A stretch of 64,000 nt of DNA from positions 47,606-111,605 of the IMG/VR virus record IMGVR_UViG_2974496990_000001; one strand, given 5' to 3'. Below are positions 7,240 through 31,012 of this stretch, piece by piece. This DNA is from a virus. Position 1 is the stretch's first letter; the number at the start of each line of letters is the position of its first letter. The translations under genes and the position numbers were made by a program. A model generated the notes under the pieces. It worked only from the letters and a program-made list of their open reading frames with translations, did no database searches and was not told the DNA's origin.

Positions 7240-8246
7240 CTGTAATAAGAGTTATGGTTCGCTAAATAAACCTCTTCAAGGAATTTGTTCCAGAAGCTCA
7301 TATCAACTTCTTTACGCATACCGTTCTTTTCTGCATTAACGGCCAACAGTTCTACTATATCAACTGTATCTTCCAGCAATTCTTGAACTTCTTTGAATGG
7401 TAAAGAACCAGACTTAATCAGTCGTACCATTCCGGCTTCACGCAATGGGAATACCAAGTCGCCAGTAGAATAGATTTCTTTCAGCTGAATACCTGCACGA
7501 TAAGCATGACTCAGAGCTTTCCAATCCACACCTTCATTAGCTTCTGCCTTACGAGCACGTTCACCATATTCTGCTTCAAGCTTAGTCAAACTGTATTTGA
7601 TTTCAGCAATAGTGATTGTGTCCTGGAATTTACGACCGAGAACATTATAGAAATGTTGAACACCCATTTTAGAATCAACATCATCTTTCCAGAATAAGAA
7701 TTCACTTGTTGGTAAAAGATGAGCAATTTCACCCAGCTTCCAACGTTGGTTGTGAGCCTTATCTTTAGGACGGTCTTCATATTTCCATTCTGGATATTCG
7801 TTCAGGATATTAAGAATGATTTTCAGGTCGGCCAGACGTGAACCTTTGACACCATATTTCGCTGCCTGTTTACGGACATAACCCAGATAAGATTTCATGT
7901 CAGTAGTATAGAAGCGTTCACGATTATCTTGAATAAACTTCCAGACATCAGGCAGGTCAGATTTAACAACCAGTTCGGCTGGGGTGTGAATCATATCAAG
8001 AGCAACGGTTTCTCCTGACTGAGCAAGCTCCAACCAATACTTCAGAGAATAAAGCTCATGGTCGACATCATCATGGCCATTCTTAGAAGCAGTATTGTTG
8101 GTGTTCATGTTGGTATGGTTCATTGCACGACCCATGAGAATATCTTTTGGGTGTGGAACGAAGATTTCTTTGAAATCTGTGTCACTTTCAGGTGTTGACG
8201 TACCATATAAATGGCTACCGAAGTAGCCTTTCATAACTGTTTTCAT
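7236..8246 (-). CDS. nrdC.11: Pol-beta-like nucleotidyltransferase, NrdC.11
   Basis: GSHLYGTSTPESDTDF motif; 336 aa; closely resembles T4 NrdC.11. Confidence 0.9.
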   Translation of the reverse strand: MKTVMKGYFGSHLYGTSTPESDTDFKEIFVPHPKDILMGRAMNHTNMNTNNTASKNGHDDVDHELYSLKYWLELAQSGETVALDMIHTPAELVVKSDLPDVWKFIQDNRERFYTTDMKSYLGYVRKQAAKYGVKGSRLADLKIILNILNEYPEWKYEDRPKDKAHNQRWKLGEIAHLLPTSEFLFWKDDVDSKMGVQHFYNVLGRKFQDTITIAEIKYSLTKLEAEYGERARKAEANEGVDWKALSHAYRAGIQLKEIYSTGDLVFPLREAGMVRLIKSGSLPFKEVQELLEDTVDIVELLAVNAEKNGMRKEVDMSFWNKFLEEVYLANHNSYYR

Positions 8247-8782
8247 CGTGTAGGATTACCCCATGTGAAGCCACGGAATGTGCGAATCAGAACATCATCG
8301 TTCAGGTTAACGGTGATACCAGCGCCAGAGATGGTATCTTCCATGAACATTGTACCACCATTACGGGCGATAGCAAGTACTCGGAATTCTTTATCATGTT
8401 TACCGAAGATATCGCCAACTTCAACTGGGACCAGTTTAGTAGTCTTTTCATCTGTCCAGTAATTCAGCTCATCGGCCTGAGAAGTATGAAGCTTTTCCTG
8501 TTTGCCTTGAGACATCACAGTGACTTCTTTTACTTTATAGACACCAACTTGGTCTTCAGAATACACAACCAGTTCAATCAAAGTACGATTAGAATAAATT
8601 TTCAGTTGAGTACGGTTTTTATTATTACCATCAATAAAGATGTTATGAGCACCATGAGCCAGAGAAATGAAGTCTACAATACCGTCAATACGACGACCAT
8701 TCTCGAGATGAATTTCTAAAGAACGGCCCACTTCTAGGGCCTTTTTATTACGATCTTCAACTTTAGCTTGTTTAATGAACAT
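8243..8782 (-). CDS. Hypothetical protein
   Basis: 179-aa ORF, AAGG SD. Confidence 0.8.
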   Translation of the reverse strand: MFIKQAKVEDRNKKALEVGRSLEIHLENGRRIDGIVDFISLAHGAHNIFIDGNNKNRTQLKIYSNRTLIELVVYSEDQVGVYKVKEVTVMSQGKQEKLHTSQADELNYWTDEKTTKLVPVEVGDIFGKHDKEFRVLAIARNGGTMFMEDTISGAGITVNLNDDVLIRTFRGFTWGNPTR

Positions 8783-8785
8783 GGC

Positions 8786-9274
8786 TTATTCCTTTTCTTC
8801 TGTTTTTGTGAAGTTCAGAGTAGGACAGAATTTATCATGCTTAGCTTTAACAAAGGCCCATACAATATTAGGCTGTTTCGGTTCGATACCATTTGCACGA
8901 TCAATTTCGGCCTGACGTTCACGTTCTACAGCTTTATCATACTTGCGATCAGACCACCATTCAGAAATACGCTGCCATACCCATACACCACCAAACACCA
9001 CAGCACATGCACCCGCCAGAATTACAGCTAGGAACAGAATAGAACCAAAGAAACTTGCTACATAAGCCCAAACACCGGTTGCACCCCAGGCAATCATTGG
9101 AGCAAGCATCATATTAGACAGCATGATAGTCAAACCGGTAATTACAGCGCTCAAAAATAGAACACGATAAATTACGGCACGTACATAAGGACAAAGAGAA
9201 CGTGGGACACCTTTAGAAGAGGTGAAAGTGTTTTTAACGAGTTTGTAGTGCCAAGAATTTACATTGATATTCAT
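8786..9274 (-). CDS. Membrane protein (two TM plus charged tail)
   Basis: Long hydrophobic segments; start moved to MNINV (AGGA SD). Confidence 0.75.
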   Translation of the reverse strand: MNINVNSWHYKLVKNTFTSSKGVPRSLCPYVRAVIYRVLFLSAVITGLTIMLSNMMLAPMIAWGATGVWAYVASFFGSILFLAVILAGACAVVFGGVWVWQRISEWWSDRKYDKAVERERQAEIDRANGIEPKQPNIVWAFVKAKHDKFCPTLNFTKTEEKE

Positions 9275-17897: not shown

Positions 17898-18173
17898 TTA
17901 TTTCTTAGAATAATCTGCCATCAGAGCAGCGACATCACTCAGTTTCTTGCCGAACAGATAATCAACTTCATTACCTTTCTTATCAACGATCTGCCACTGA
18001 CCAGAACCTTTGTTGCCGAAGGTATAATCGCCTACTTTATAAGAAAATCCACCGACTTTCTTGATCGGAGTAAAAGTGAAACCACCTTTCTTAGCCAGGA
18101 ATTCCATACGACGCAGGTCATCAGCGTCTTCGTTTAACTGGGCTTCGGTGATAAATTCATTATAAGTTTTCAT
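17898..18173 (-). CDS. Internal head protein (capsid-targeting sequence)
   Basis: Start moved to [10 protein letters not shown] (CTS). Confidence 0.8.
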
Positions 18174-18657
18174 ATGCTTTCCAGGTTCCTGTTTTGAAAG
18201 TTGCAATCACGCGACGAGCGCGATTTGGAGTTTGAGTTTTATACCAACGTGAATCGGCCAGCTCAATTGCTGCAGCGTCCCACTGTTTTGCTTTCAGAAG
18301 ACGCATACCTTTAGGGAAGCCGGCAACACCAGCTACACCCATCTGGAATACCATGTTAATTAATGCACAACGACGAACTTCATCAAGTACATCATAAACT
18401 GGTTTCAGGGTAGCATTAGCTAATATGCCTTTACGAGCCTTTTCTACAGAACCATTAAACAATTCTTCAGCTTCACGTTGTGTAATACGACCATCACATA
18501 TACGACCCATCAATTTATCTAAAGCATCACGAGCGACGTCTTTAGATGGGTTCTTAGTAATCAGCTGGCCTATACCGATGGTCCAAAAGCCTTCGGTGTC
18601 TTTATACAATTCTAATTTGCAACCTTCGTCGATACGAAGCATGCCAAAAATGTCCAT
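18160..18657 (-). CDS. e: Endolysin, T4 lysozyme
   Basis: [22 protein letters not shown] (catalytic E11/D20/T26), [10 protein letters not shown]. Confidence 0.97.
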
Positions 18658-18660
18658 AGG

Positions 18661-18690
18661 ACCTCCTATCTATTGATAGGAGTATTTATC
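18661..18690 (-). promoter_or_regulatory. SD-sequestering hairpin and late-promoter variant of gene e
   Basis: Minus strand GATAAATA CTCCTATC-AATA-GATAGGAG GT. Confidence 0.75.
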
Positions 18691-19165
18691 AGCCTACAGA
18701 CTTACTCTCTTTTGGAAACAGTCGTTGCATAACATTGAACAGACTTGGCCCCATTACATAGTTCCACATACTTGGTTTAATCAATGCAAAGCGATCAATT
18801 TCTGGGAAACGTTCACCTGTTTCAGAGTCTTCATGGTATGCCGTACAAACACAATCCTTGAACTGCTCGTGGCGGACAGGGAGCGGATAAAGGAACACAT
18901 GCAAATCTTTATTACTTGCATATTTCTGACGTCCTAGGTCCACCAGGAGTGATGCATCATAATCAGTGAAACCTGTTTCTTCCCAGCATTCACGGATTGC
19001 TGCACGTAGAGGAGTTTCACCTTCTTCGACATGACCTTTTGGAATGTCCCAACGAGAAGGCATTCCAGGGCCGAGTCCTGAATTAGTAACACGCCCCATA
19101 AACAGTTCTTTATCTTCAGTGAAGAACATAATACCGGCTGATACTTCTTTCTTAATTACGGCCAT
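18689..19165 (-). CDS. nudE: Nudix hydrolase NudE
   Basis: Nudix box PKGHVEEGETPLRAAIRECWEETG; start moved to MAVIKKEVSAG. Confidence 0.92.
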   Translation of the reverse strand: MAVIKKEVSAGIMFFTEDKELFMGRVTNSGLGPGMPSRWDIPKGHVEEGETPLRAAIRECWEETGFTDYDASLLVDLGRQKYASNKDLHVFLYPLPVRHEQFKDCVCTAYHEDSETGERFPEIDRFALIKPSMWNYVMGPSLFNVMQRLFPKESKSVG

Positions 19166-19661
19166 TTCGGCATCCTTTAATAAATGAATCAAATTCGTCC
19201 CGTTTTGCTTGTTTCTTTTCTCTTGCTCTAAGAACCGGATAATGAATACCATAAGCCACAATACCAGTGAGAAGAGCAAGAGCACCACCTACTAATACAG
19301 AGAAAATTACCCATGGGATAGCGCAAGCTAATGAAACAAAGATTGCTCCTGCAATAGGTAGGCCTTTAGCCATAAAGATAGGCCATAAAATGAAATACAC
19401 CAAAAGTGGATAACCAATCCACCCAAGAGAGTGAATGCCTACATCGACATTGCGGTCTATATTATCATACCAATATTCTTTTTCGTTTGGGTCTTTTTCT
19501 TTCTTAGGTTGATATCCAGCCACTTGACACCCCATATTATATTCCTCGATCAGACTTTGTTTTAAGTCTTCAGGACAACCAGTCCAATCAATCCAGTTCT
19601 CTGAACAACCCCAACAGGGATCATCCAATTGTCGCCAATCAATTTGATGAATGGCCATCAC
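19152..19661 (-). CDS. Membrane protein (e.2/e.4-like)
   Basis: Two to three TM segments; C-terminal FDSFIKGCR. Confidence 0.7.
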   Translation of the reverse strand: MMAIHQIDWRQLDDPCWGCSENWIDWTGCPEDLKQSLIEEYNMGCQVAGYQPKKEKDPNEKEYWYDNIDRNVDVGIHSLGWIGYPLLVYFILWPIFMAKGLPIAGAIFVSLACAIPWVIFSVLVGGALALLTGIVAYGIHYPVLRAREKKQAKRDEFDSFIKGCRNGRN

Positions 19662-20362
19662 CAGCCTTCCATTGGGAACTCAAGATAAACCTGAGCGTTC
19701 ACACGAATTTCGTTGGTAATCTTTTTGACTCGGTCTGTATTACGAGAGACTCGACCGAACCAGCGCCAACCGTTAAGAACAGCTTTCGAACCAGTGTGCC
19801 ACGTCGCATGGTTAAATTCAAGCAAAGTACGGTCTGGGGCTTCCCACTTTTGGAGAGTTCCTTCTTCAATGTGACGAAGTACTTCCGGGTGCCAATGCTT
19901 ATAAATTGTTTTTCCTTCAGGCACTTCAGAGAACTCAGCCACCCCGGTAGCAAAATGAGTAGGACACACGTCAGCATTAACGAGCCCAATAATATGTTCA
20001 GACAAGTAACGAGGGTTATCATAATCAGGTTGTCCGGCTGTAAGGAAATGTTGTCCTGCTGGAATATCAGGGCGTGGTACGTCGTCATGGTGATAACCAG
20101 GGATAGCAGGGTACCAGCCAGGCATCAGCATATGGATACGTGTGTCAATTACGACTTCTTCTTTGTTCCAGTCATCAGGCAGATTCATGATGAAGCTACG
20201 AGTGATAGGACCGCCATTATCAAAAGCGAAAGCCAATGAACTATTGAAGAACATTGTTTCGTTCTTGATTTTATCGTTATCAATACGACCAGCAAAACTA
20301 CCTACAGCACGAGCTTGAGAATCAAAAGTTTTTGGACCATTCATAATATTTTTCTCACTCAA
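19658..20362 (-). CDS. Putative 2OG-Fe(II) dioxygenase-fold protein
   Basis: GYHHDD (HxD), distal WH, and WRWFGR pattern. Confidence 0.55.
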   Translation of the reverse strand: MSEKNIMNGPKTFDSQARAVGSFAGRIDNDKIKNETMFFNSSLAFAFDNGGPITRSFIMNLPDDWNKEEVVIDTRIHMLMPGWYPAIPGYHHDDVPRPDIPAGQHFLTAGQPDYDNPRYLSEHIIGLVNADVCPTHFATGVAEFSEVPEGKTIYKHWHPEVLRHIEEGTLQKWEAPDRTLLEFNHATWHTGSKAVLNGWRWFGRVSRNTDRVKKITNEIRVNAQVYLEFPMEGW

Positions 20363-20606: not shown

Positions 20607-21028
20607 TACTTGCGAACTTGACTTGCGAAGCCTACTGCGATTTCACGTTCTCTGTTCTTAGCGTTTATCAATTGGACTTTCTTATCTTTACGTCCTTGAA
20701 GCCATTTCTTAAGAATACTGTTTGAAGCAATTTCACCAGTTGTTTTACTTAAACGTCCTTGACGGTACAAACGAACATAACGTGCCCAACGAGTCCAGAA
20801 ATAGAACTGTTGTCCTGCAGCAGAAGCCCAGGTGAAGTACCATACCTGAGAAGAGCCTTGGAACCAAGGACCAAAGATGCTTAATCCCCAATAAGTGAAC
20901 ATTGCTGTCATAAATGCACATGCAAAACTAATCATAACCGTAGCAAAGATACAGAAATCTTCACCAGACCAGGATGCATTTTTCCACCACAAATACAGTT
21001 GCTTAATAATCATATTATTTTCCTTCAA
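20606..21028 (-). CDS. Membrane protein
   Basis: Two hydrophobic segments, basic C-terminus. Confidence 0.75.
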   Translation of the reverse strand: MKENNMIIKQLYLWWKNASWSGEDFCIFATVMISFACAFMTAMFTYWGLSIFGPWFQGSSQVWYFTWASAAGQQFYFWTRWARYVRLYRQGRLSKTTGEIASNSILKKWLQGRKDKKVQLINAKNREREIAVGFASQVRK

Positions 21029-21944
21029 ATGGCAGAATCATGTGCTCGTTTTTCTTGAAGCGGTCGATGTAGTCATTCACACCTAGAGTTTTATACATAT
21101 GAACTACTTTGTGGTAGTTTTCCCAAGCGTATTCACGGAACCAACCACTCGTAATCGACGTACAGACCTTCTCTAAGGCCATCATGAAAGAATGCTCTGA
21201 AGATACATTCTGGAAGTTATTAGGAACCTGGGAACGTTCCAGGGCTAACACACATGTCTCTTCGTAGACACCTGCCAGTTTAATAGCTTCAGGCAGCGCT
21301 TCGAACTTTTCACGGCTTGTCATGACTTCAGAACCGTCCTTCATGTAGAAGGTATAAGCAGGCCGGTCTGCCAGAGCTACAGCACGGTGGATTGAATCAT
21401 GGTCCAATGTGTAGATGGTATCGTTAAAGAACGTCGATTTATTCACGTCCAGTTTCGGATGGTTATAGCTCAACGTTTCTTTCTGGCGTTCAGTGACAAT
21501 CAGCTCAAGAGGAGTTGAAAGTTTAACGCCTTTGTTACGAAGGAAACGAATGTGATGCATTGTCTTACGGAAGAACGGATTGTTCTTTTTGAAACGATGA
21601 GAAAGCTTAATAGCCAGGCACATCTCTGGAGTGGCCCAATGGAAGCCTGAAAGATTATCTTTCTTGCATTTAAGATCGGCATAATTCAAAAGCATCGCAT
21701 TCGAATTTGTGTTGTAGCCTTCTTTAACGATATATGCTTCAAAGTAAGTCTCGCGGCCGTTGTGCATACATTTGAAAGCTCGAACGTCTTCGTTTTCTAC
21801 TTCAACTTCAGCACCGAACATACGACCTTTGAAAGCTTCCCAATCAGGTTCTTCTGCGATGAAGTCCCAATCTGAATTTTTAATATCGTCGTAGCCAATC
21901 AAACCGTGGTGCTCAAGAGCACGTGAACCGATAACTAACATCAT
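21015..21944 (-). CDS. Nucleotidyltransferase-like protein
   Basis: N-terminal VIGSRAL...SDWD (GS...DxD); C-terminal helical domain with DHDSIH. Confidence 0.6.
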   Translation of the reverse strand: MMLVIGSRALEHHGLIGYDDIKNSDWDFIAEEPDWEAFKGRMFGAEVEVENEDVRAFKCMHNGRETYFEAYIVKEGYNTNSNAMLLNYADLKCKKDNLSGFHWATPEMCLAIKLSHRFKKNNPFFRKTMHHIRFLRNKGVKLSTPLELIVTERQKETLSYNHPKLDVNKSTFFNDTIYTLDHDSIHRAVALADRPAYTFYMKDGSEVMTSREKFEALPEAIKLAGVYEETCVLALERSQVPNNFQNVSSEHSFMMALEKVCTSITSGWFREYAWENYHKVVHMYKTLGVNDYIDRFKKNEHMILPFEGK

Positions 21945-21973
21945 AATATTTTCCTCTCTGTTTGTGTAGGAGC

Positions 21974-22003
21974 ATCATAACATGGTTCCTACACGTTGTA
22001 AAC
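21974..22003 (-). promoter_or_regulatory. Early promoter
   Basis: GTTTACA-N17-TATGAT. Confidence 0.8.
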
Positions 22004-22005
22004 AC

Positions 22006-22236
22006 TTAAATTTCTTGACAGTATGTGTTGTGGGTTTCGATGTAATCTTCAAGCGAAGAACACACTAACGGGTCAATAGTACCGCCAACATCTTCGTTAT
22101 AAGGGTCGATGCCACAGTGGGCATCTTCGAAGCGCACGCCATAGTCAGACTTCTTGTACGTGATACCGAAGATTTGTTCAAACTTCTTACGAGAGATTTT
22201 GTAGCTCTCTCCGTCACCATTAGGATGATACAGCAT
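22006..22236 (-). CDS. Small acidic hypothetical protein
   Basis: Start moved to MLYHP (GAGG SD). Confidence 0.7.
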   Translation of the reverse strand: MLYHPNGDGESYKISRKKFEQIFGITYKKSDYGVRFEDAHCGIDPYNEDVGGTIDPLVCSSLEDYIETHNTYCQEI

Positions 22237-22243
22237 TTTTACC

Positions 22244-22444
22244 TCAACACTGGTAAGATGAAGAAGCCCAACCATTTACGGTGATACTGTTCCCATCGAC
22301 ACGAATACCGTTATGGAAATCAATACCACTACGGTCTGTGAAGTACATAGTTACATCTTCACGTTCTTCGGCGACGATTTGAAACAGGTTTTCTAATGCT
22401 GCCTGAGCAGTACGAACAGCGCAATCTAATTCACGACGAGACAT
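22244..22444 (-). CDS. WxSSS..C family small protein 1
   Basis: Start MSRRELD (AGGA SD); ends GWASSSYQC. Confidence 0.8.
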   Translation of the reverse strand: MSRRELDCAVRTAQAALENLFQIVAEEREDVTMYFTDRSGIDFHNGIRVDGNSITVNGWASSSYQC

Positions 22445-22721
22445 TTTGATTCCTTCTACACATTTGGATGAAAGCATCGAGTTCATACATTTTAAATTCA
22501 GGTGAATCGACGCTGATAATTTTAGTCCATAAACAACGTATTGGGTCCCAACTCATATCAGGCCAAGTAAACGGGTCTGGTTGCTGTCGATGATACACAG
22601 CTACAGCACGCCTGATATAATCGGTTCCATAAATCGAATGAGCTACATGCGATAATGCTATACATGTTGTCCCATCAAGTCCATCTACTTCAAGATAGCC
22701 ATCGACAATACGAAGTTTCAT
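22431..22721 (-). CDS. Hypothetical protein
   Basis: 96 aa, GGAG SD after an early promoter. Confidence 0.75.
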   Translation of the reverse strand: MKLRIVDGYLEVDGLDGTTCIALSHVAHSIYGTDYIRRAVAVYHRQQPDPFTWPDMSWDPIRCLWTKIISVDSPEFKMYELDAFIQMCRRNQNVSS

Positions 22722-22750
22722 TTTCTACTCCTTTCTAAACAAGTACGGGT

Positions 22751-22780
22751 ATCTTATCACTAAGACACCCGTTTGTAAAC
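22751..22780 (-). promoter_or_regulatory. Early promoter
   Basis: GTTTACA-N17-TAAGAT. Confidence 0.8.
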
Positions 22781-22783
22781 TGC

Positions 22784-23011
22784 TTAGCAACTCTGCATAG
22801 AAGAACTATACCAGAAGCCTTGGTCGTGAGGCAAGTAGTTCTCATCACGAATCCATTTGTAGTCCTCGAATTCACTAGAACTCACAGGAATGTATTCTTC
22901 ATTACCGACAGTGAAGATTTCACCTGTAGCGTCGGCTATGTCTACGCCTTTACTGATAAGGTCACGAATGGCCTTTTCAACATTAGCTACAGTTTCAATT
23001 TTAATAGTCAT
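22784..23011 (-). CDS. WxSSS..C family small protein 2
   Basis: Start MTIKIE (AGGA SD); ends FWYSSSMQSC. Confidence 0.8.
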   Translation of the reverse strand: MTIKIETVANVEKAIRDLISKGVDIADATGEIFTVGNEEYIPVSSSEFEDYKWIRDENYLPHDQGFWYSSSMQSC

Positions 23012-23019
23012 ATGTTTCC

Positions 23020-23250
23020 TTAGCAAGAAGAAGGTTGCCAGATGGAGCCATCGGCTTCAACATTGAATTCACGACCAGTTTCTTCGCCATAACAAGAAGA
23101 GTTATTCCAGTCATCAAAACGCATGCTACCATCAGAGGTATCAAATTCAAAACCAAAAGAATCGGCTGCTGCGAGTTCGCTTACTTTGTTAAACAGAACG
23201 GCCAGTTCTTTAGCCGCTTGTTCGAGTTCAATATTACCAGATACAGACAT
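23020..23250 (-). CDS. WxSSS..C family small protein 3
   Basis: Ends IWQPSSC; internal WNNSSC. Confidence 0.8.
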   Translation of the reverse strand: MSVSGNIELEQAAKELAVLFNKVSELAAADSFGFEFDTSDGSMRFDDWNNSSCYGEETGREFNVEADGSIWQPSSC

Positions 23251-23259
23251 AATAATTCC

Positions 23260-23538
23260 TTAACATTCCATAGAAGAAGATACCCAGCCACCAGATTCGA
23301 GGCTAGTATAATATGAGTGTTGATTAACGACAGCCCAATTAGGATGCCCCATTTCGGTTTCACGTTCAAGGTCTTTTTTCAAAGCGCCGGGCGAATAATA
23401 TGTTCCACCCATACCATACGCTGGTGACATTTCAAAACTTAGACCATATTTGTCGGCTACTTTCTTTGCATGGTTAATAGCTTCGCAAATGGCTGCCTCG
23501 GCAGCAGCCATAGTCAGTTCGGGTTTATGTTTAGACAT
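23260..23538 (-). CDS. WxSSS..C family small protein 4
   Basis: Start MSKHK (TAATG overlap); ends GWVSSSMEC. Confidence 0.8.
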   Translation of the reverse strand: MSKHKPELTMAAAEAAICEAINHAKKVADKYGLSFEMSPAYGMGGTYYSPGALKKDLERETEMGHPNWAVVNQHSYYTSLESGGWVSSSMEC

Positions 23539-23858
23539 TAACACATCTCGCTTGAAGAAATCCAGACGCCTTCAGTAAGATTACCATTACCATCAAGGTC
23601 GTAACCATTACATGAACAAGCGTATTCAATATAATATTCAGATGCATTACTGCCTTTAGGATAATAGGTTTCGCCATTACCGTAATCGCCACGGCTCATA
23701 GAGATGCCGTATTTGTCCATCAGTTGTTCGGCACGTGCCTCATCAACCGGTTCAAGCAGAGCTTCAATGGCCTTACGAGCAGAAGCGGCATCAGTTACCA
23801 GAGGAATACGGGTTTCGATTACTTCCATTGCTTCAGCTTTGTTTTTAGGATTTTTCAT
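23538..23858 (-). CDS. WxSSS..C family small protein 5
   Basis: Ends VWISSSEMC. Confidence 0.8.
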   Translation of the reverse strand: MKNPKNKAEAMEVIETRIPLVTDAASARKAIEALLEPVDEARAEQLMDKYGISMSRGDYGNGETYYPKGSNASEYYIEYACSCNGYDLDGNGNLTEGVWISSSEMC

Positions 23859-24217
23859 TTTCTTCTCACATTTCGAATAAAAAGTTCAGTGGATTTACGC
23901 TCATTCACAAGGTCACGAGCAGCACGTTCGGCAGTCCATTCTTTAAGATGTTTCTTCCACGGCAAATATTCTTTAAAGAAATATTGCACACGTTCACATT
24001 GATAGGTCATATACCAAGTTAATGGAAATCCACAAATCAAATACTTCGTTACTTCAATAACCCAGGGAGCTACTTCATCTTTCATGCCTTTATCAAAGAT
24101 AATCATATCACTAAAACATGCAGCAAGTGCTAATGTGGCAGAGACTAAGGCTGCAATTAGCATAGAGCCAAATTTGTCTAAGTTACGACGGAACATTGGT
24201 TTCATTTTATAACTCAT
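23855..24217 (-). CDS. Membrane protein (e.3/e.4-like)
   Basis: Two TM segments; C-terminal TELFIRNVRRK. Confidence 0.7.
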   Translation of the reverse strand: MSYKMKPMFRRNLDKFGSMLIAALVSATLALAACFSDMIIFDKGMKDEVAPWVIEVTKYLICGFPLTWYMTYQCERVQYFFKEYLPWKKHLKEWTAERAARDLVNERKSTELFIRNVRRK

Positions 24218-24917
24218 TATTGGCCTCTGCTTTCTGGCGTGCTTTAACATTTGTGCGACATTGCTCTACGAAGTCAAGAACAATAACAGATTTATCTTGA
24301 TTGCGAACATTTTCAGCATGAAAATATTGGTCAATCTTAGGGAACCAATATTCTTTTAAAGACTTGTTCCGATCATCAGAATAACCAAGTTTACCTACTT
24401 TTGTATGATACGAGCTAACAATAATGCCAAATGGCTTCTTATTATAAGTGAGCTCAATATGATAAAGGTCATCACGACAATTATTGAAATCACGTACTGA
24501 TTTCTTCAATGATGTCCAGTGGTCTGCTTTATCATTAAATGCAAAGATTGAATATTCAAGTGACTTGATATCAACAATCTTTAATGAACCCTGTGAATCA
24601 AGTTCGGCAAAAAATTTCGTGATATTAGCGATGTCATCAATAACAAATCCAGCGACTAATGCAGCCTTATAATCATCACGGTATGCAGAAAAGCGATGAA
24701 GTTTCCAATCAGAATCAGAACAACTTCCACCACATGGATATTTCGCTGCTGCCTGAACGACTTCAATAGGCACACGGGTTTGCATAGCAAATTGCTGAAT
24801 CATATCCCGTTTTGAACCACTTAAACTACGTGTGATATCAATAACATTATCGGTGTAATCTCCGACTGGCATTTTAGGTTTAGTTTCGTAGCCGCCATCA
24901 CCTTCATAGAAACTCAT
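24207..24917 (-). CDS. Hypothetical protein (e.5 position)
   Basis: 236 aa, GAGG SD. Confidence 0.75.
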   Translation of the reverse strand: MSFYEGDGGYETKPKMPVGDYTDNVIDITRSLSGSKRDMIQQFAMQTRVPIEVVQAAAKYPCGGSCSDSDWKLHRFSAYRDDYKAALVAGFVIDDIANITKFFAELDSQGSLKIVDIKSLEYSIFAFNDKADHWTSLKKSVRDFNNCRDDLYHIELTYNKKPFGIIVSSYHTKVGKLGYSDDRNKSLKEYWFPKIDQYFHAENVRNQDKSVIVLDFVEQCRTNVKARQKAEANNEL

Positions 24918-24951
24918 AATATTTTCCTCAAGAAGTTAATCTTAGTTCTCC

Positions 24952-24975
24952 AAAAGAGAGGGCCGAAGCCCTCTT
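24952..24975 (-). terminator. Rho-independent terminator after e.6
   Basis: AAGAGGGC-TTCG-GCCCTCTCTTTT. Confidence 0.85.
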
Positions 24976-24979
24976 CATA

Positions 24980-25573
24980 TTACTTCAGACTTGCCAGATA
25001 TTCTTCAACATCTGCATCAGTCGTTACAGTGCCAGGTTCAGCAGTGTGGAAGGTGTCGACTTTCATCAGAGTTTCATCGACGCTTACTTTAGTCAGTGCA
25101 GCGATTTCGATTACATCATCGGCAGTTGCGATACCCAGGGCATTTGCAGAGCGAGTTTCACGAATGAACTCAAGTTTCACAGCCAGGTCCTGACGAGCAT
25201 CATCAAGCTCTACAACCTTGGCTTCAATTTCAGAACGCATACCTGCATATTCATCGGCTTTAGTAAGCAGAGCTGCTGCAGTACGACGATACAGAAGACC
25301 CAGTTTAGCGTGAGTACCGACCGGAGAACCATTAGCCAGAAGACGCTTAATTTCTTTTTCTTTACTTTCAGCCAGAGTTGCTTTATCAGCAGCCAGAGCA
25401 CGAATACGTTTTTCTTCATTCACGGACAGAACGTGAGAAGTTTTGAGCTGAGTGATACGGTCAATCAGAGTGTTGGCCGCTTCAGTGTACTGGTCTTCGA
25501 CAGTAGTGTTACGAGCAACGAAAGAACCGAATTTAGCACGGATGAATTCAACCAGTTTTTTCAGAATAGCCAT
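24980..25573 (-). CDS. e.6: e.6-like coiled-coil protein (PspA/IM30-like)
   Basis: 197 aa, [16 protein letters not shown]-terminus, long heptad repeats; T4 synteny. Confidence 0.75.
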
Positions 25574-28209: not shown

Positions 28210-28285
28210 TGGCGGACCTAACGAGATTCGAACTCGTGACGCTCCCGTGACAGGGGAGTATTTTAACCGCTGAAACTATAGGTCC
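28210..28285 (-). tRNA. tRNA-Asp(GTC)
   Basis: Full cloverleaf, anticodon GTC, encoded CCA. Confidence 0.95.
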
Positions 28286-28456
28286 GGATTGCGCCCATCT
28301 TGTTGTGGTATTAGGCCATACCTTTCGGCTGGGTACTTCCAGGGAACAGAGCTTGGACGACTTAAGGGTGTACATCCATCTGGGCTTAGAGTCGTCTTAC
28401 AGACACGAGTATTATTCCAACTCTACCACATCACCAGCTTGGTCCCTCTTGTTTTC
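28286..28456 (-). ncRNA. Candidate pseudoknotted RNA between tRNAs
   Basis: Stems GACGAC/GTCGTC, AGGGAC/GTTCCCT and crossing TGTGGTA/TACCACA. Confidence 0.5.
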
Positions 28457-28505
28457 TGGCAGGCGCTTGAGGAATCCACCGCTCTACCAACTGAGCTAAG
28501 CACCT
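28457..28505 (-). pseudogene. tRNA with a 27-nt internal deletion (probably derived from tRNA-Trp)
   Basis: AGGTGCT acceptor, intact D-arm, GTGGATT-CCTC, AGCGCCT-G-CCA; 49 nt; anticodon 3' arm and most of the T-arm missing. Confidence 0.75.
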
Positions 28506-28508
28506 AAT

Positions 28509-28584
28509 TGGGGTGACCTATGGGACTTGAACCCATGACTACAAGAATCACAATCTTGAATTCTACCAACTGAATTAAGGCCAC
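28509..28584 (-). tRNA. tRNA-His(GTG)
   Basis: Cloverleaf, anticodon GTG, C73, CCA. Confidence 0.93.
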
Positions 28585-28617
28585 AGCAATGTTCACTCAA
28601 ATGAACGAACATTAATC

Positions 28618-28693
28618 TGGCGGATGTGCACGGATTCGAACCGCGGACCAATCACTTAACGGGCGACCGCTCTACCAACTGAGCTACACATCC
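28618..28693 (-). tRNA. tRNA-Asn(GTT)
   Basis: Cloverleaf, loop CC-GTT-AA, CCA. Confidence 0.9.
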
Positions 28694-28694
28694 T

Positions 28695-29222
28695 TTATCT
28701 TGCAGATTTTATTTTGTTTTCTTTAAATAGGTCGATAATAGAGTTAACATCGCCTTTAATCCACTCACCATCAGCATTTAAAGCTTTATGGAAAGAAAAC
28801 TCTTCTTCAAAACGTTTATCACTGAAATAGTAACATTCTAATTTATAATCACGTAAAGGGCAGTAGGATTGATAAGTGTTCAACCTATCATAAACATCCA
28901 CTGTAGAACCTATTTTATACCATCCTTCAAAAGCAGGATTAGTTACGCAATAAATGAAACCTTCTTTAATACCTTTAGAAGAATTACCATTTCTGAAATA
29001 CTTTACACGCAACAACGATAACTTGGTGAAGTTCACTTGTCGTGAAATCAATTTATCAGACTTTCGTGAAGCAGTGTCTGTATACTGGAGCTTAAAATTA
29101 GGATGAATATATTTGAAATAAATGTATTTAGCGAACTCAGTATTTATATCAAAATCAATCCCACTAATACCTTCTTCATTAAGATAAGCACTATATTGAT
29201 TAATTATTTTGGCCTTATCCAT
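28695..29222 (-). CDS. GIY-YIG (T5orf172-type) homing endonuclease, SegB-like position
   Basis: GFIYCVTN...WYKIG...DRL...GEW; AT-rich; inserted between tRNAs. Confidence 0.8.
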   Translation of the reverse strand: MDKAKIINQYSAYLNEEGISGIDFDINTEFAKYIYFKYIHPNFKLQYTDTASRKSDKLISRQVNFTKLSLLRVKYFRNGNSSKGIKEGFIYCVTNPAFEGWYKIGSTVDVYDRLNTYQSYCPLRDYKLECYYFSDKRFEEEFSFHKALNADGEWIKGDVNSIIDLFKENKIKSAR

Positions 29223-29238
29223 ATTCTTCTCATAAATT

Positions 29239-29316
29239 TGGTAGGACGTGAGGGATTTGAACCCATCGACATCTCGATTAAAAGTCGAGTGCTCTAACCA
29301 GCTGAGCTAACGTCCT
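29239..29316 (-). tRNA. tRNA-Lys(TTT)
   Basis: Cloverleaf, anticodon TTT, CCA; one extra nt in the T-stem region. Confidence 0.92.
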
Positions 29317-29328
29317 TCTTAATTCTAT

Positions 29329-29565
29329 TTATTCAGTATATCTCTTAAACTGTAAAGCAAAATCTTCATCAACTTTAGTTAAGAAGTGTCCTGCCTTAAA
29401 TCGTTTAGAGCTACCTTCAACTTCTACACCGTATCCGTTCTTACCAAGGACTCGACCAACTCGCATTTCGCCAGGGTCGCCCATTGAATTACAACGAACA
29501 CCGTACAGAACAAAATCATTTTCGAATACCGGAGCATTTTTCCGGTCAGTAATTAATTCTATCAT
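29329..29565 (-). CDS. Small SH3/KOW-like hypothetical protein
   Basis: 78-aa ORF; start site uncertain because it overlaps the putative Pm. Confidence 0.6.
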   Translation of the reverse strand: MIELITDRKNAPVFENDFVLYGVRCNSMGDPGEMRVGRVLGKNGYGVEVEGSSKRFKAGHFLTKVDEDFALQFKRYTE

Positions 29566-29582
29566 ATTAACCTTAAAGCATA
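29556..29582 (-). promoter_or_regulatory. Putative middle promoter
   Basis: TATGCTTTA-N12-TAGAAT. Confidence 0.55.
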
Positions 29583-30028
29583 TTACGTTTTAAGTTTTCA
29601 CGAACTCGATAAAGATTTGAACAGAATTCCTGTTCAGTCAAAACAGTTTCGTTCTTTTTCGACTTACCCATCGAGTGAGTTAATGTAGCGTTCTGCGTAG
29701 CCAGGAGCGCTCTCTGGAACCCTTCATTCAAGGCTAATTGATTATATGCTCGTTCGATAAGAAGCGTATAGGCGTCACTCTGGCGTTGCATAGGCACACC
29801 TTTCCAGTATAATGTCTGGAGTCGCCACCAATTCTTTTTCTTACCTTTGAACTTAGCTTTCTTACCAACTAGAGTACAAACATGTTCCTGCATTTCTACT
29901 GAAGAAAATTTCAGTGATTGCAAAAAGCCTTCCATCGAAGCACATTGTACACCGTCAATTTCAAAAGCATGAGGTGCAAAGTTACTTAATGCAGATGAAG
30001 GATAACCTGCACCAGAACCGATGTCCAT
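29573..30028 (-). CDS. NADAR-family (gp30.3-like) ADP-ribosylhydrolase
   Basis: ALSNF..HAFEIDG...SMEGFLQSLK...LYWKG...THSMG...LTEQEF, similar to recalled T4 gp30.3. Confidence 0.8.
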   Translation of the reverse strand: MDIGSGAGYPSSALSNFAPHAFEIDGVQCASMEGFLQSLKFSSVEMQEHVCTLVGKKAKFKGKKKNWWRLQTLYWKGVPMQRQSDAYTLLIERAYNQLALNEGFQRALLATQNATLTHSMGKSKKNETVLTEQEFCSNLYRVRENLKRNML

Positions 30029-30249
30029 TATTCATATTCCTTTTCAAGAAGGAAATAGTAGATATCATCATGGTCGGTGATAACGTTTTCAAACCAATGC
30101 TCGCGTTCTTTTACAAGAGTCGGTCCTGAAGTCCAATTCCCACATACAAAATATTGCACGCCTTCACGGTCTTGGAAGAATACGGCTTCAGAATGTCCGC
30201 CGTCTTTCCATTCGATAATTGCATGTCCTAATGGATATTTTTTAATCAT
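30028..30249 (-). CDS. Hypothetical protein
   Basis: 73 aa, GAGG SD. Confidence 0.75.
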   Translation of the reverse strand: MIKKYPLGHAIIEWKDGGHSEAVFFQDREGVQYFVCGNWTSGPTLVKEREHWFENVITDHDDIYYFLLEKEYE

Positions 30250-30269
30250 ATTTTCCTCACATTAAAAGT

Positions 30270-30379
30270 TCACAGCGGGGTGGATTCGAACCACCAATAT
30301 TAAGTCACTCATACACCAAGCATGCTAGGGCACTTACCCCGGACGGAATCGAACCGCATCTACAATACCTATCGCCGTG
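30270..30379 (-). ncRNA. tRNA-mimic RNA with two T-loop hairpins
   Basis: Acceptor CACGGCG/CGCTGTG, terminal T-arm GGTGG-TTCGAAT-CCACC, internal GCGG-TTCGATT-CCGT; no anticodon arm. Confidence 0.6.
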
Positions 30380-30381
30380 TC

Positions 30382-30458
30382 TGGTGGCCCCATCCGGACT
30401 TGAACCGGAAACCTACCAGTTATGAGCCGGGCGCTCTAACCAATTGAGCTATAGGGCC
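30382..30458 (-). tRNA. tRNA with CAT anticodon (Met, or more likely Ile2)
   Basis: Cloverleaf, CAT anticodon, GGCCCT acceptor, A73, CCA. Confidence 0.9.
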
Positions 30459-30919
30459 TGAATAATTTGTTTACCACGTTTAAATCTGAATGTGCTTGTC
30501 TGTGAATGACAATTCGGACATAATATCCTCAAATTAGAATACAAATGGTTTTTAGAATTACCATCAATATGGTCTAATTCACACTCTATAGGCTTAGAAT
30601 TCCATTCAGAAATTCCGCATTCTTCACATTCGTTCTTTTTAAGACCTTCAGAATACAATCGCTTTTTAAGTTTATACGATTGATATTGTGGATGAAGACC
30701 TTTCAAAATTTCATCAAGAGGTATTGTCTGTTTTGAATACTCAGACTTATCTCTTTTTATACCAGTTCGTCCTTTATTAGGTCGGTATAACCCATAATGA
30801 ACGGCATGTTGTTTAAATGTTCGGTGGTGGCATCCTATTAAAGAACAAGCTGCAGCCATAGAACAAGTAGAGTTTATAGCATGCTCTATTTCTTCTTTAC
30901 TATAAGTTAGTGTTTTCAT
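30449..30919 (-). CDS. HNH homing endonuclease with N-terminal HTH
   Basis: CEECG...ELDHIDG...NLRILCPNCHS. Confidence 0.9.
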   Translation of the reverse strand: MKTLTYSKEEIEHAINSTCSMAAACSLIGCHHRTFKQHAVHYGLYRPNKGRTGIKRDKSEYSKQTIPLDEILKGLHPQYQSYKLKKRLYSEGLKKNECEECGISEWNSKPIECELDHIDGNSKNHLYSNLRILCPNCHSQTSTFRFKRGKQIIQAL

Positions 30920-30923
30920 AATT

Positions 30924-31012
30924 TGGTACGGGTGACGAGATTCGAACTCGTAAGAGCTTAAGCCCTATGGCATTTTAAGTGCCATGCGTACTGCCAATAC
31001 CGCCACACCCGC
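30924..31012 (-). tRNA. tRNA-Leu(TAA)
   Basis: Class II cloverleaf with long variable arm, anticodon TAA, CCA. Confidence 0.92.

Follow-up and report, generated by a model that had tools for sequence, protein, structure and literature searches.

Small cysteine-terminal proteins encoded beside a predicted nucleotidyltransferase in a T4-like phage and its relatives

The stretch of DNA analysed here, called the window, comprises 64,000 nucleotides of a phage genome (positions 47,606 to 111,605 of the IMG/VR record IMGVR_UViG_2974496990_000001). Between positions 22244 and 23858 its minus strand carries five small genes whose acidic products all end in a short motif of tryptophan, serines and a terminal cysteine, and downstream of these lies the gene (21015-21944) for a predicted nucleotidyltransferase (NTase), referred to below as the enzyme. 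The small genes are old paralogs and belong to a large family of small, acidic alpha/beta proteins that is confined to phages; the co-occurrence of this family with the enzyme is obligate, deep and two-way.

The small-gene array and its protein family

Likely limits of the five genes, all on the minus strand, were set from the ribosome-binding site and ATG codon of each. The first gene in the direction of transcription (23538-23858) encodes a protein of 106 residues that ends in VWISSSEMC and contains the segments MDKYGIS and DYGNGETYY. The ATG of the second gene (23260-23538) overlaps the TAA of the first (TAATG); its 92-residue product, of the core subtype, has the turn AYGMGGTYY and ends in GWVSSSMEC. 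The third protein (23020-23250, 76 residues) carries a short tail, IWQPSSC, and an internal DWNNSSC, and the fourth (22784-23011, 75 residues) ends in FWYSSSMQSC. These four match phrog_899 (E = 2.1e-18, 2e-18, 1.3e-7 and 3.7e-11, respectively), and the fifth, a minimal core form of 66 residues (22244-22444) ending in GWASSSYQC, matches phrog_4882 (E = 4.7e-33); both PHROGs are annotated 'unknown function'. The five proteins have no Pfam match above the curated cut-off, and PADLOC and NCBIfam likewise return nothing above theirs, the 92-residue protein having weak sub-threshold NCBIfam matches only.

All five tails fit the pattern W-x-(S/P)-S-S-x(0-3)-Cys, with the stop codon directly after the cysteine. 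In an alignment of the paralogs a D, a G, the W, two S and the terminal C are invariant, an N-terminal helix is common to all, and the segments (A/M)DKYG.S and YG.G.TYY are found in the proteins starting at 23260 and 23538. The five reading frames, their Cys-terminal ends, the common helix and the two segments shared by two members were pointed out in an earlier note on this DNA, and each of these observations stands. The pattern is rare by chance: stop-to-stop frames of at least 30 codons that end in W.{1,2}SS.{0,4}C number five in the whole 177,643-bp genome, namely the five small open reading frames (ORFs), compared with a mean of 0.1 in 20 shuffled genomes. All five genes are under purifying selection, with ratios of non-synonymous to synonymous divergence (dN/dS) of 0.13-0.24; saturation of dS makes these values approximate only.

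The invariant serine positions of the tail are encoded by TCN as well as AGY codons, so what selection preserves is the protein sequence. A DNA or RNA signal as the cause of the motif was rejected on these mixed codons, on the lack of any Rfam match, and on the lack of an extended repeat, the DNA repeats being about 16 nt at most and located at the motif codons.

A profile search that covered 1.84 billion representatives found the family in at least 204 clusters (E<=1e-3, clustered at 50% identity), with a median length of 87 residues and a median net charge of -7. The earlier note had proposed following the motif through phage relatives together with their gene neighbourhoods, and the tail proved to be kept, standing at the end of 147 of the 150 best representatives, 137 of which terminate exactly in cysteine. 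Within these 137, Trp occupies position -7 in 135, Ser position -4 in every one and Ser position -3 in 135; position -5 is S, A or P, and position -8 is mostly G. The spacing from Ser-Ser to Cys varies from 0 to 3 residues in the family, and the terminal cysteine is the sole cysteine in 105 of 149 members. In the numbering of the 92-residue protein, conservation falls into two patches, the first comprising A24, A28, F35, Y41-G42-M43-G44-G45 and Y47, and the second W85, S88, S89 and C92; residues 50-82, which separate the patches, are hypervariable and indel-rich. Several paralogs in the window keep the tail and are without the YGxGG turn.

An AlphaFold2 (AF2) model of the 92-residue protein (predicted local distance difference test score, pLDDT, 94.1; predicted template modelling score 0.81) is a compact alpha/beta domain, with a helix at residues 6-31, a hairpin at 34-40/43-48, a second helix at 50-62 and a last strand at 83-87 followed by a turn. 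The W-x-S-S segment is confidently modelled as the end of this strand and the turn, and only the final two residues are less certain. No credible fold relative was found by PDB sequence search, Foldseek, VIA or AFDB clusters; the best VIA matches are antitoxins of the Phd/YefM type at noise level (Z 3.0-3.9), and the BFVD matches are uncharacterised phage proteins only.

The internal WNNSSC of the third protein, also remarked on in the earlier note, is a real feature of its short-tail subtype, being kept as DW[LN][NS]SSCYGE in 19 of 24 members. With YGEE after it, the internal copy at 23020-23250 resembles a duplication of the last strand and tail. Other family members consist of the same core of ~60 residues preceded by an extra N-terminal domain of ~90 residues (140-170 in total). 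We considered whether such longer tail-bearing proteins, for example those of phrog_23943, are unrelated bodies bearing a portable tag, and rejected this, as their last 40-60 residues align to the family core (hhalign probability 96.6% and 93.6%). Eleven stretches of a repetitive, Ser/Pro/Glu-rich protein of 1722 residues (P0029) match the part of the family profile that covers the N-terminal helix; the protein has no tail, and biased composition or a coiled coil probably accounts for these matches as an artefact. We note that GenBank records misname the small protein, as 'tail completion protein' in phages UPEC07 and HX01 and as 'CAZy families GH13 protein' in EAWsc9.

The downstream enzyme and its linkage to the small genes

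The enzyme gene (21015-21944, minus strand) encodes a 309-residue protein, a long form of its family, built of DUF7277 (E = 5e-27, 94.9 bits) and DUF7275 (E = 5.3e-78, 261.7 bits; gathering cut-off 27). Across 39 diverse sequences, residues G6-S7, D25-x-D27, K113, H116, K127, H182-D183, H186, E228-E229 and E236-R237 are invariant, and E69 and C261 are nearly so. The AF2 model (pLDDT 90.3) is bilobed, pairing a beta-sheet NTase domain with a helical bundle as in the DUF1814/MenT-AbiEii fold. Its nearest solved fold is MenT1 (8an4), both by Foldseek (E = 6.6e-4, probability 1.00) and by VIA (Z 10.9; root-mean-square deviation 3.4 A for 153 aligned residues spanning 1-277). The next VIA matches are MenT3/TglT (6j7n, Z 9.1), ANT(2'') (4xje, 9.0), MenT4 (6y56, 8.4), Pb27 (8.3), JHP933 (8.0), the NTase-like domain of AbiEi (6y8q, 7.9) and LnuA (4wh5, 7.5), and below the NTase group the score falls to Z 5.2. 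Judged from this model, the protein is predicted to be a MenT-like NTase of the Pol-beta fold with an intact catalytic motif; the invariant K113, K127 and D183 are candidates for the Lys and Asp that the second domain contributes to MenT-type catalysis. PF08843 (AbiEii) has no match at E<=1 in the window enzyme or the 39 homologs and none in the phage genome; two of the enzyme homologs have weak DUF6036 matches (E = 0.0045), and PADLOC gives the enzyme only a weak sub-threshold match to Cas8b.

The enzyme family is viral, being absent from all 14 control cellular genomes, with Atlas clusters that are 94-100% viruses. A total of 730 phage records, covering a wide range of hosts, contain the enzyme, and the family makes up 2,079 protein clusters at 90% identity, every one of them named 'hypothetical' or misnamed; the record of Klebsiella phage vB_KpnM-VAC36, for example, calls its homolog 'prohead assembly scaffold protein'. 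No fusion of enzyme and partner genes occurs among the 120 best enzyme homologs, three of odd length having been inspected and found not to be fusions.

The linkage holds from either side. A search of IMG/VR with the enzyme only gave 80 loci at 35-87% identity, contigs of 300-390 kb included, and 68 of them contain an ORF with the strict tail, which in 66 lies on the same strand at most ~2.7 kb upstream. Most of the remaining loci have degenerate tails directly upstream (WVQSSC, WAGSSC, WDGSSC, WYESRC). Conversely, loci seeded with the small protein (core-subfamily alignment) have the enzyme at most ~2 kb downstream in 32 of 33 cases, the sole exception being a contig of 3.6 kb whose end falls directly behind the small genes, and a distant family representative on an unrelated 15.8-kb contig stands two genes upstream of a DUF7277/DUF7275 gene. 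The linkage spans phages of Escherichia, Pseudomonas, Aeromonas and Acinetobacter as well as jumbo phages, with one to six partner genes per enzyme.

When 82 loci were clustered at 60% enzyme identity into 34 groups, the small family was present in 25, whereas the next most widespread neighbour family was present in 6; the linkage across these diverged groups is therefore not inherited synteny. The earlier note had named an adjacent NTase-like gene and an oxygenase-like gene as candidate modifiers of the tail. The first suggestion gains from the linkage, which is seen in both directions and in deeply diverged phages; the second does not, as the oxygenase-like ORF of 234 residues (19658-20362) has no Pfam match and its family accompanies the module in 2 of the 34 groups, and we rejected it as a modifier.

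Complete genomes show three classes. Long-form enzymes with adjacent partners occur in the phage of this window, RB69, 44RR2.8t, phiPsa374 (Otagovirus) and SKA64 (Phapecoctavirus). Short-form enzymes (248-263 residues), with no family member genome-wide, occur in KVP40, Vibrio phage K412, Streptomyces phage BillNye and Gordonia phage Cucurbita, while T4, RB49 and RB43 have neither enzyme nor partners; partners without enzyme were found in none of the complete genomes examined. The short forms in the locus set (L124:1321-2082, which is KVP40; L131:3809-4594; L127:3851-4597; L128:3809-4600) are without residues 43-88 of the window enzyme, a 45-residue insert that forms the E69-bearing hairpin; within the motif KVCTSITSGWFREYAWEN they replace Cys261 by Ile or Val. 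Cys261 is kept in 83 of 84 long forms. In the tree the short forms are set apart from all others by a branch with a Shimodaira-Hasegawa-like approximate likelihood-ratio test (SH-aLRT) value of 99, and 62 of the 66 rows in the long-form clade have partners. The long/short divide is essentially one split and is therefore to be taken as a lead and not as a statistic. It links the invariant terminal cysteine of the partners with Cys261 of the enzyme, and the contrast in insert 43-88 and Cys261 should, going by the sequences, point to the site of the partner interface.

Two further observations concern these forms. A 305-kb jumbo-phage contig of IMG/VR (L081) carries two enzymes, one short and one long (2117-2866 and 7959-8909), and its only tail-bearing ORF adjoins the long form, downstream of it instead of upstream. 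The enzyme segment C-T-S-I-T-S-G-W (residues 261-268, window 21162-21185) reads in reverse as W-G-S-T-I-S-T-C, equal to the partner tail W-x-S-S-S-x-x-C in its W-to-C spacing of 7 and its Ser/Thr positions; the segment is predicted to be helical, and the likeness may be coincidental.

Genome setting and regulatory features

The source phage is T4-like (Straboviridae, Kanagawavirus-like) with a genome of 177,643 bp, and Klebsiella phage vB_KM5a1-KLB31 is 97% identical to the window over 21000-25000. Public sequencing runs containing the locus are metagenome contigs, a type of data uninformative on expression. The array and the enzyme gene sit in a variable early region, between the equivalents of T4 genes e.2 and e.3. 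Homologs of the phage lysozyme (e) and NUDIX (nudE) genes lie downstream (window 18160-19288), which confirms the equivalence of the locus with T4 e to e.3. RB69 has an equivalent insertion at the equivalent site, in which RB69ORF137c and ORF136c are members of the small family and ORF134c is the enzyme; in T4, e.2 and e.3 are adjacent and the whole insertion is absent. Six tRNA genes (Asp, His, Asn, Lys, Met and Leu) lie on the minus strand at 28210-31012, a block ~4.4 kb upstream of the small-gene array that the closest relative has likewise.

The earlier note described the five genes as tandem members of a family whose acidic bodies vary while the tail stays fixed. This is upheld except for strict contiguity, as the fifth member (22244-22444) is parted from the other four by a 96-residue ORF and a promoter/hairpin cassette. 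The ORF (22431-22721, minus strand) lies outside the small family, matches phrog_32323 and belongs to a BLAST cluster present in 1 of the 34 locus groups. The cassette (22745-22779, minus strand), recognised by RNA folding and consensus match, consists of the promoter-like hexamers TTTACA-17-TAAGAT overlapping a 12-bp hairpin (22779-22745; folding energy -19.5 kcal/mol, z -6.1), with a T-rich tail after it. By its sequence it looks like a regulatory cassette of the promoter-early stem-loop (PeSL) type that splits the small-gene array; PeSL cassettes occur in the hyperplastic regions of T4-type phages (PMC2839356).

Directly upstream of the enzyme gene is a tail-less ORF of 76 residues (22006-22236, minus strand; phrog_3723), which probably lies outside the core of the module, its cluster being present in 3 of the 34 groups. 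A further site resembling an early promoter, TTTACA-17-TATGAT with an extended TG (21974-22002, minus strand; consensus match only), precedes the enzyme gene just upstream, so that transcription of the enzyme gene may not depend on that of most small genes.

Interpretation and comparison with known systems

That the small proteins and the enzyme are functional partners is very probable, as judged from the sequence comparisons. Beyond this, we tentatively prefer to read the locus as an enzyme-plus-clients module, in which the tail would be an acceptor or docking element for the downstream NTase. One enzyme (21015-21944) would serve one to six diversified partner proteins, which would engage it through a conserved surface, formed by the hairpin turn YGxGG together with the C-terminal motif G-W-x-(S/A/P)-S-S-x(0-3)-Cys-COOH. 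The acidic body of the partner may lie on the nucleic-acid-binding face of the enzyme, and the Ser-Ser...Cys end may reach the active-site region, beside the Cys261-bearing motif that is exclusive to partner-associated enzymes. The preferred chemistry would be transfer of a nucleoside monophosphate (NMP) onto a serine of the tail, and the small proteins would then be nucleotide-tagged early effectors or decoys. That the tail is itself an acceptor or substrate of the enzyme is a possible, somewhat doubtful assignment; it is favoured by position -4, which is always Ser and thus always offers a hydroxyl. A more specific version is unlikely: the tail would be a genetically encoded acceptor tag to whose serine one or more nucleotides are added, the terminal Cys and Cys261 would help to position or activate it, and the conjugates would resemble the ends of nucleic acids or tRNAs and so decoy or inhibit host defences. 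Physical binding is inferred, as is a part in host takeover or in counter-defence; what is said here of the biological role is a guess.

Several observations weigh against the enzyme-plus-clients reading. The known protein-modifying Pol-beta NTases (MntA, GlnD and GlnE) act on Tyr and not on Ser. The tail is mostly packed in the model (pLDDT 92 for residues 81-90) and is no free peptide, and the internal, non-terminal copy of the motif in the short-tail subfamily is hard to square with strict recognition of a free C-terminus. The co-variation of Cys261 with the partners amounts to a single observation, one evolutionary event. A few long-form enzymes, those of loci L024 and L082 among them, are without a partner nearby; in L024, which is T4-like and has an enzyme 69% identical to that of the window, an upstream ORF (7748-7987) ends in VCYSSSTF and is possibly a decayed family member. 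Finally, a small upstream gene and MenT1 as the nearest fold fit an antitoxin and its toxin equally well.

This last reading, nearly as good as the enzyme-plus-clients model and on the whole rather unlikely, would make the small proteins antitoxin-like regulators that restrain or time, in the course of infection, a toxin of the MenT/AbiEii type, which would shut off host translation by adding to tRNA 3' ends; they would do so as unmodified pseudo-substrates or active-site plugs. The nearest solved folds of the enzyme are the toxins MenT1, MenT3 and MenT4, the small genes lie upstream as an antitoxin gene would, and the partners are acidic where the MenT cleft is electropositive. Partners were never seen without the enzyme in the loci and genomes examined, and the weak structural matches of the small protein, for what a noise-level score is worth, are to antitoxins. 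A precedent is MenA1, of 68 residues, which neutralises MenT1 (PMC10435456). However, MenA1 acts through a hydrophobic helix, by which it binds across two toxin protomers (PMC10435456), and not through a C-terminal tail, and a steric block needs neither an invariant Ser-Ser nor a terminal Cys. Clients are favoured over a 1:1 antitoxin because there are one to six diversified partners per enzyme, some with extra domains, and because the genes are not translationally coupled, the enzyme having intervening ORFs and a promoter-like site of its own. Since partner-less enzymes exist, among them the short forms and a few long ones, neutralisation is not obligatory. Nor does the locus fit the definition of a type II, IV or VII toxin-antitoxin system, namely one antitoxin gene and one toxin gene that share an operon on a plasmid or in a cellular genome.

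Alternatively, and improbably, the small proteins are independent host-directed effectors, whose tail docks into a conserved host protein (the terminal thiol and carboxylate chelating a metal, for instance), whose bodies are decoys or inhibitors, and whose pathway the enzyme shares without touching them. They are acidic, diversified early proteins of a hyperplastic accessory region with a hypervariable middle segment, and some known inhibitors work by inserting a C-terminal tail into an enzyme. This leaves unexplained why the family is the sole conserved neighbour of the enzyme across phages with differing hosts, and why it is absent wherever the long-form enzyme is absent.

It is a shade less probable still that the motif is structural or binds a cofactor, forming an intrinsic metal, redox or ligand site whose ligand, for example a nucleotide, the enzyme supplies or consumes. 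The two conserved patches, the hairpin turn (Y41, G42, M43, G44, G45 and Y47) and the end of the chain (W85, S88, S89 and C92), would suit such a site, as would the confident modelling of W-x-S-S as strand end and turn and a Gly-rich turn that may resemble phosphate-binding loops; against it, most members have a single Cys, and the window paralogs without the YGxGG turn retain the tail. The suggestion of the earlier note that the array has the layout of precursors of ribosomally synthesised and post-translationally modified peptides, with maturases acting on the tail by Ser dehydration and Cys addition or by decarboxylation of S-x-x-C-COOH of the aminovinyl-cysteine (AviCys) type, is highly improbable and was rejected on the variable 0-3 spacing of Ser and Cys and on the folded domain into which the tail is integrated (pLDDT 94.1), for although tandem copies, variable bodies and a fixed tail recall such precursors, and S-x-x-C-COOH resembles the ends of AviCys-forming lanthipeptides, the proteins are of 60-170 residues with no leader/core split, no LanB/LanM/LanD, radical-SAM or YcaO family is found among the 20 neighbour proteins scanned, and none co-occurs across the loci.

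The enzyme-plus-clients reading and its antitoxin-like rival have different consequences. Should the tail prove to be a nucleotidylation tag, large lytic phages would possess a new post-translational system of protein tagging. Should the small proteins instead hold a MenT-like toxin in check, lytic phages would take over their hosts by the logic of toxin-antitoxin systems, with a whole set of regulators. Under either, the contrast in insert 43-88 and Cys261 indicates the expected interaction site. The eight-residue C-terminus is kept over enzyme divergence down to ~35% identity, and the carriers of the enzyme include RB69-like, Klebsiella, Enterobacter, Acinetobacter, Aeromonas, phAPEC8-like and Pseudomonas syringae phages, which are well used as models or therapy candidates.

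The earlier note knew of no described function for the small proteins, and we found none in the literature or, above curated cut-offs, in Pfam, NCBIfam or PADLOC; no publication was found on the small families, on DUF7277/DUF7275 or on the module. The entries phrog_899, phrog_4882, phrog_23943 and DUF7277/DUF7275 are family names only, of 'unknown function', and their returned descriptions mention neither the tail nor the linkage. The feature is real and strongly conserved, with no published description found, and is best filed as a module of the NTase-plus-small-partner type.

Among characterised NTases, ANT(2'')-Ia and LnuA match the N-terminal half of the enzyme and transfer an NMP to a hydroxyl; unlike it, they act on small molecules, have no partner proteins and are without the DUF7275 C-terminal domain. 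HepT-MntA, in which a minimal Pol-beta NTase AMPylates a small protein encoded beside it (PMC7641770, PMC11586414), is a precedent for an NTase that modifies its neighbour. There, however, the target is a HEPN RNase modified on Tyr, in a 1:1 pair of bacteria and archaea, whereas here the candidate acceptor is Ser. The partner in HEPN/MNT systems is defined as a HEPN RNase with an R-x(4-6)-H motif; the five proteins have no HEPN motif, no Pfam match above the curated cut-off and no solved fold relative. MenT3/TglT with TakA (MenA3), MenT4 and AbiEii with AbiEi belong to the same fold group and likewise pair a nucleotide-transferring enzyme with a controlling protein encoded next to it, but their partners are a kinase (TakA) or a winged helix-turn-helix regulator (AbiEi), and they are bacterial defence or toxin-antitoxin loci and not genes of lytic phages.

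The closest likeness in fold is to MenAT1 of M. tuberculosis (PDB 8an4/8an5; PMC10435456), which combines a bilobed NTase with helical bundle, a GS/T...DxD core and a small protein encoded upstream, the catalytic residues of MenT1 being T39/D41/K137/D152. MenT1 has 195 residues compared with 309 here, the enzyme of the window having a larger C-terminal domain and no PF08843 match. In contrast to MenAT1, the module described here is confined to phages, has one to six partners unrelated to MenA1, and gives them an invariant C-terminal tail.

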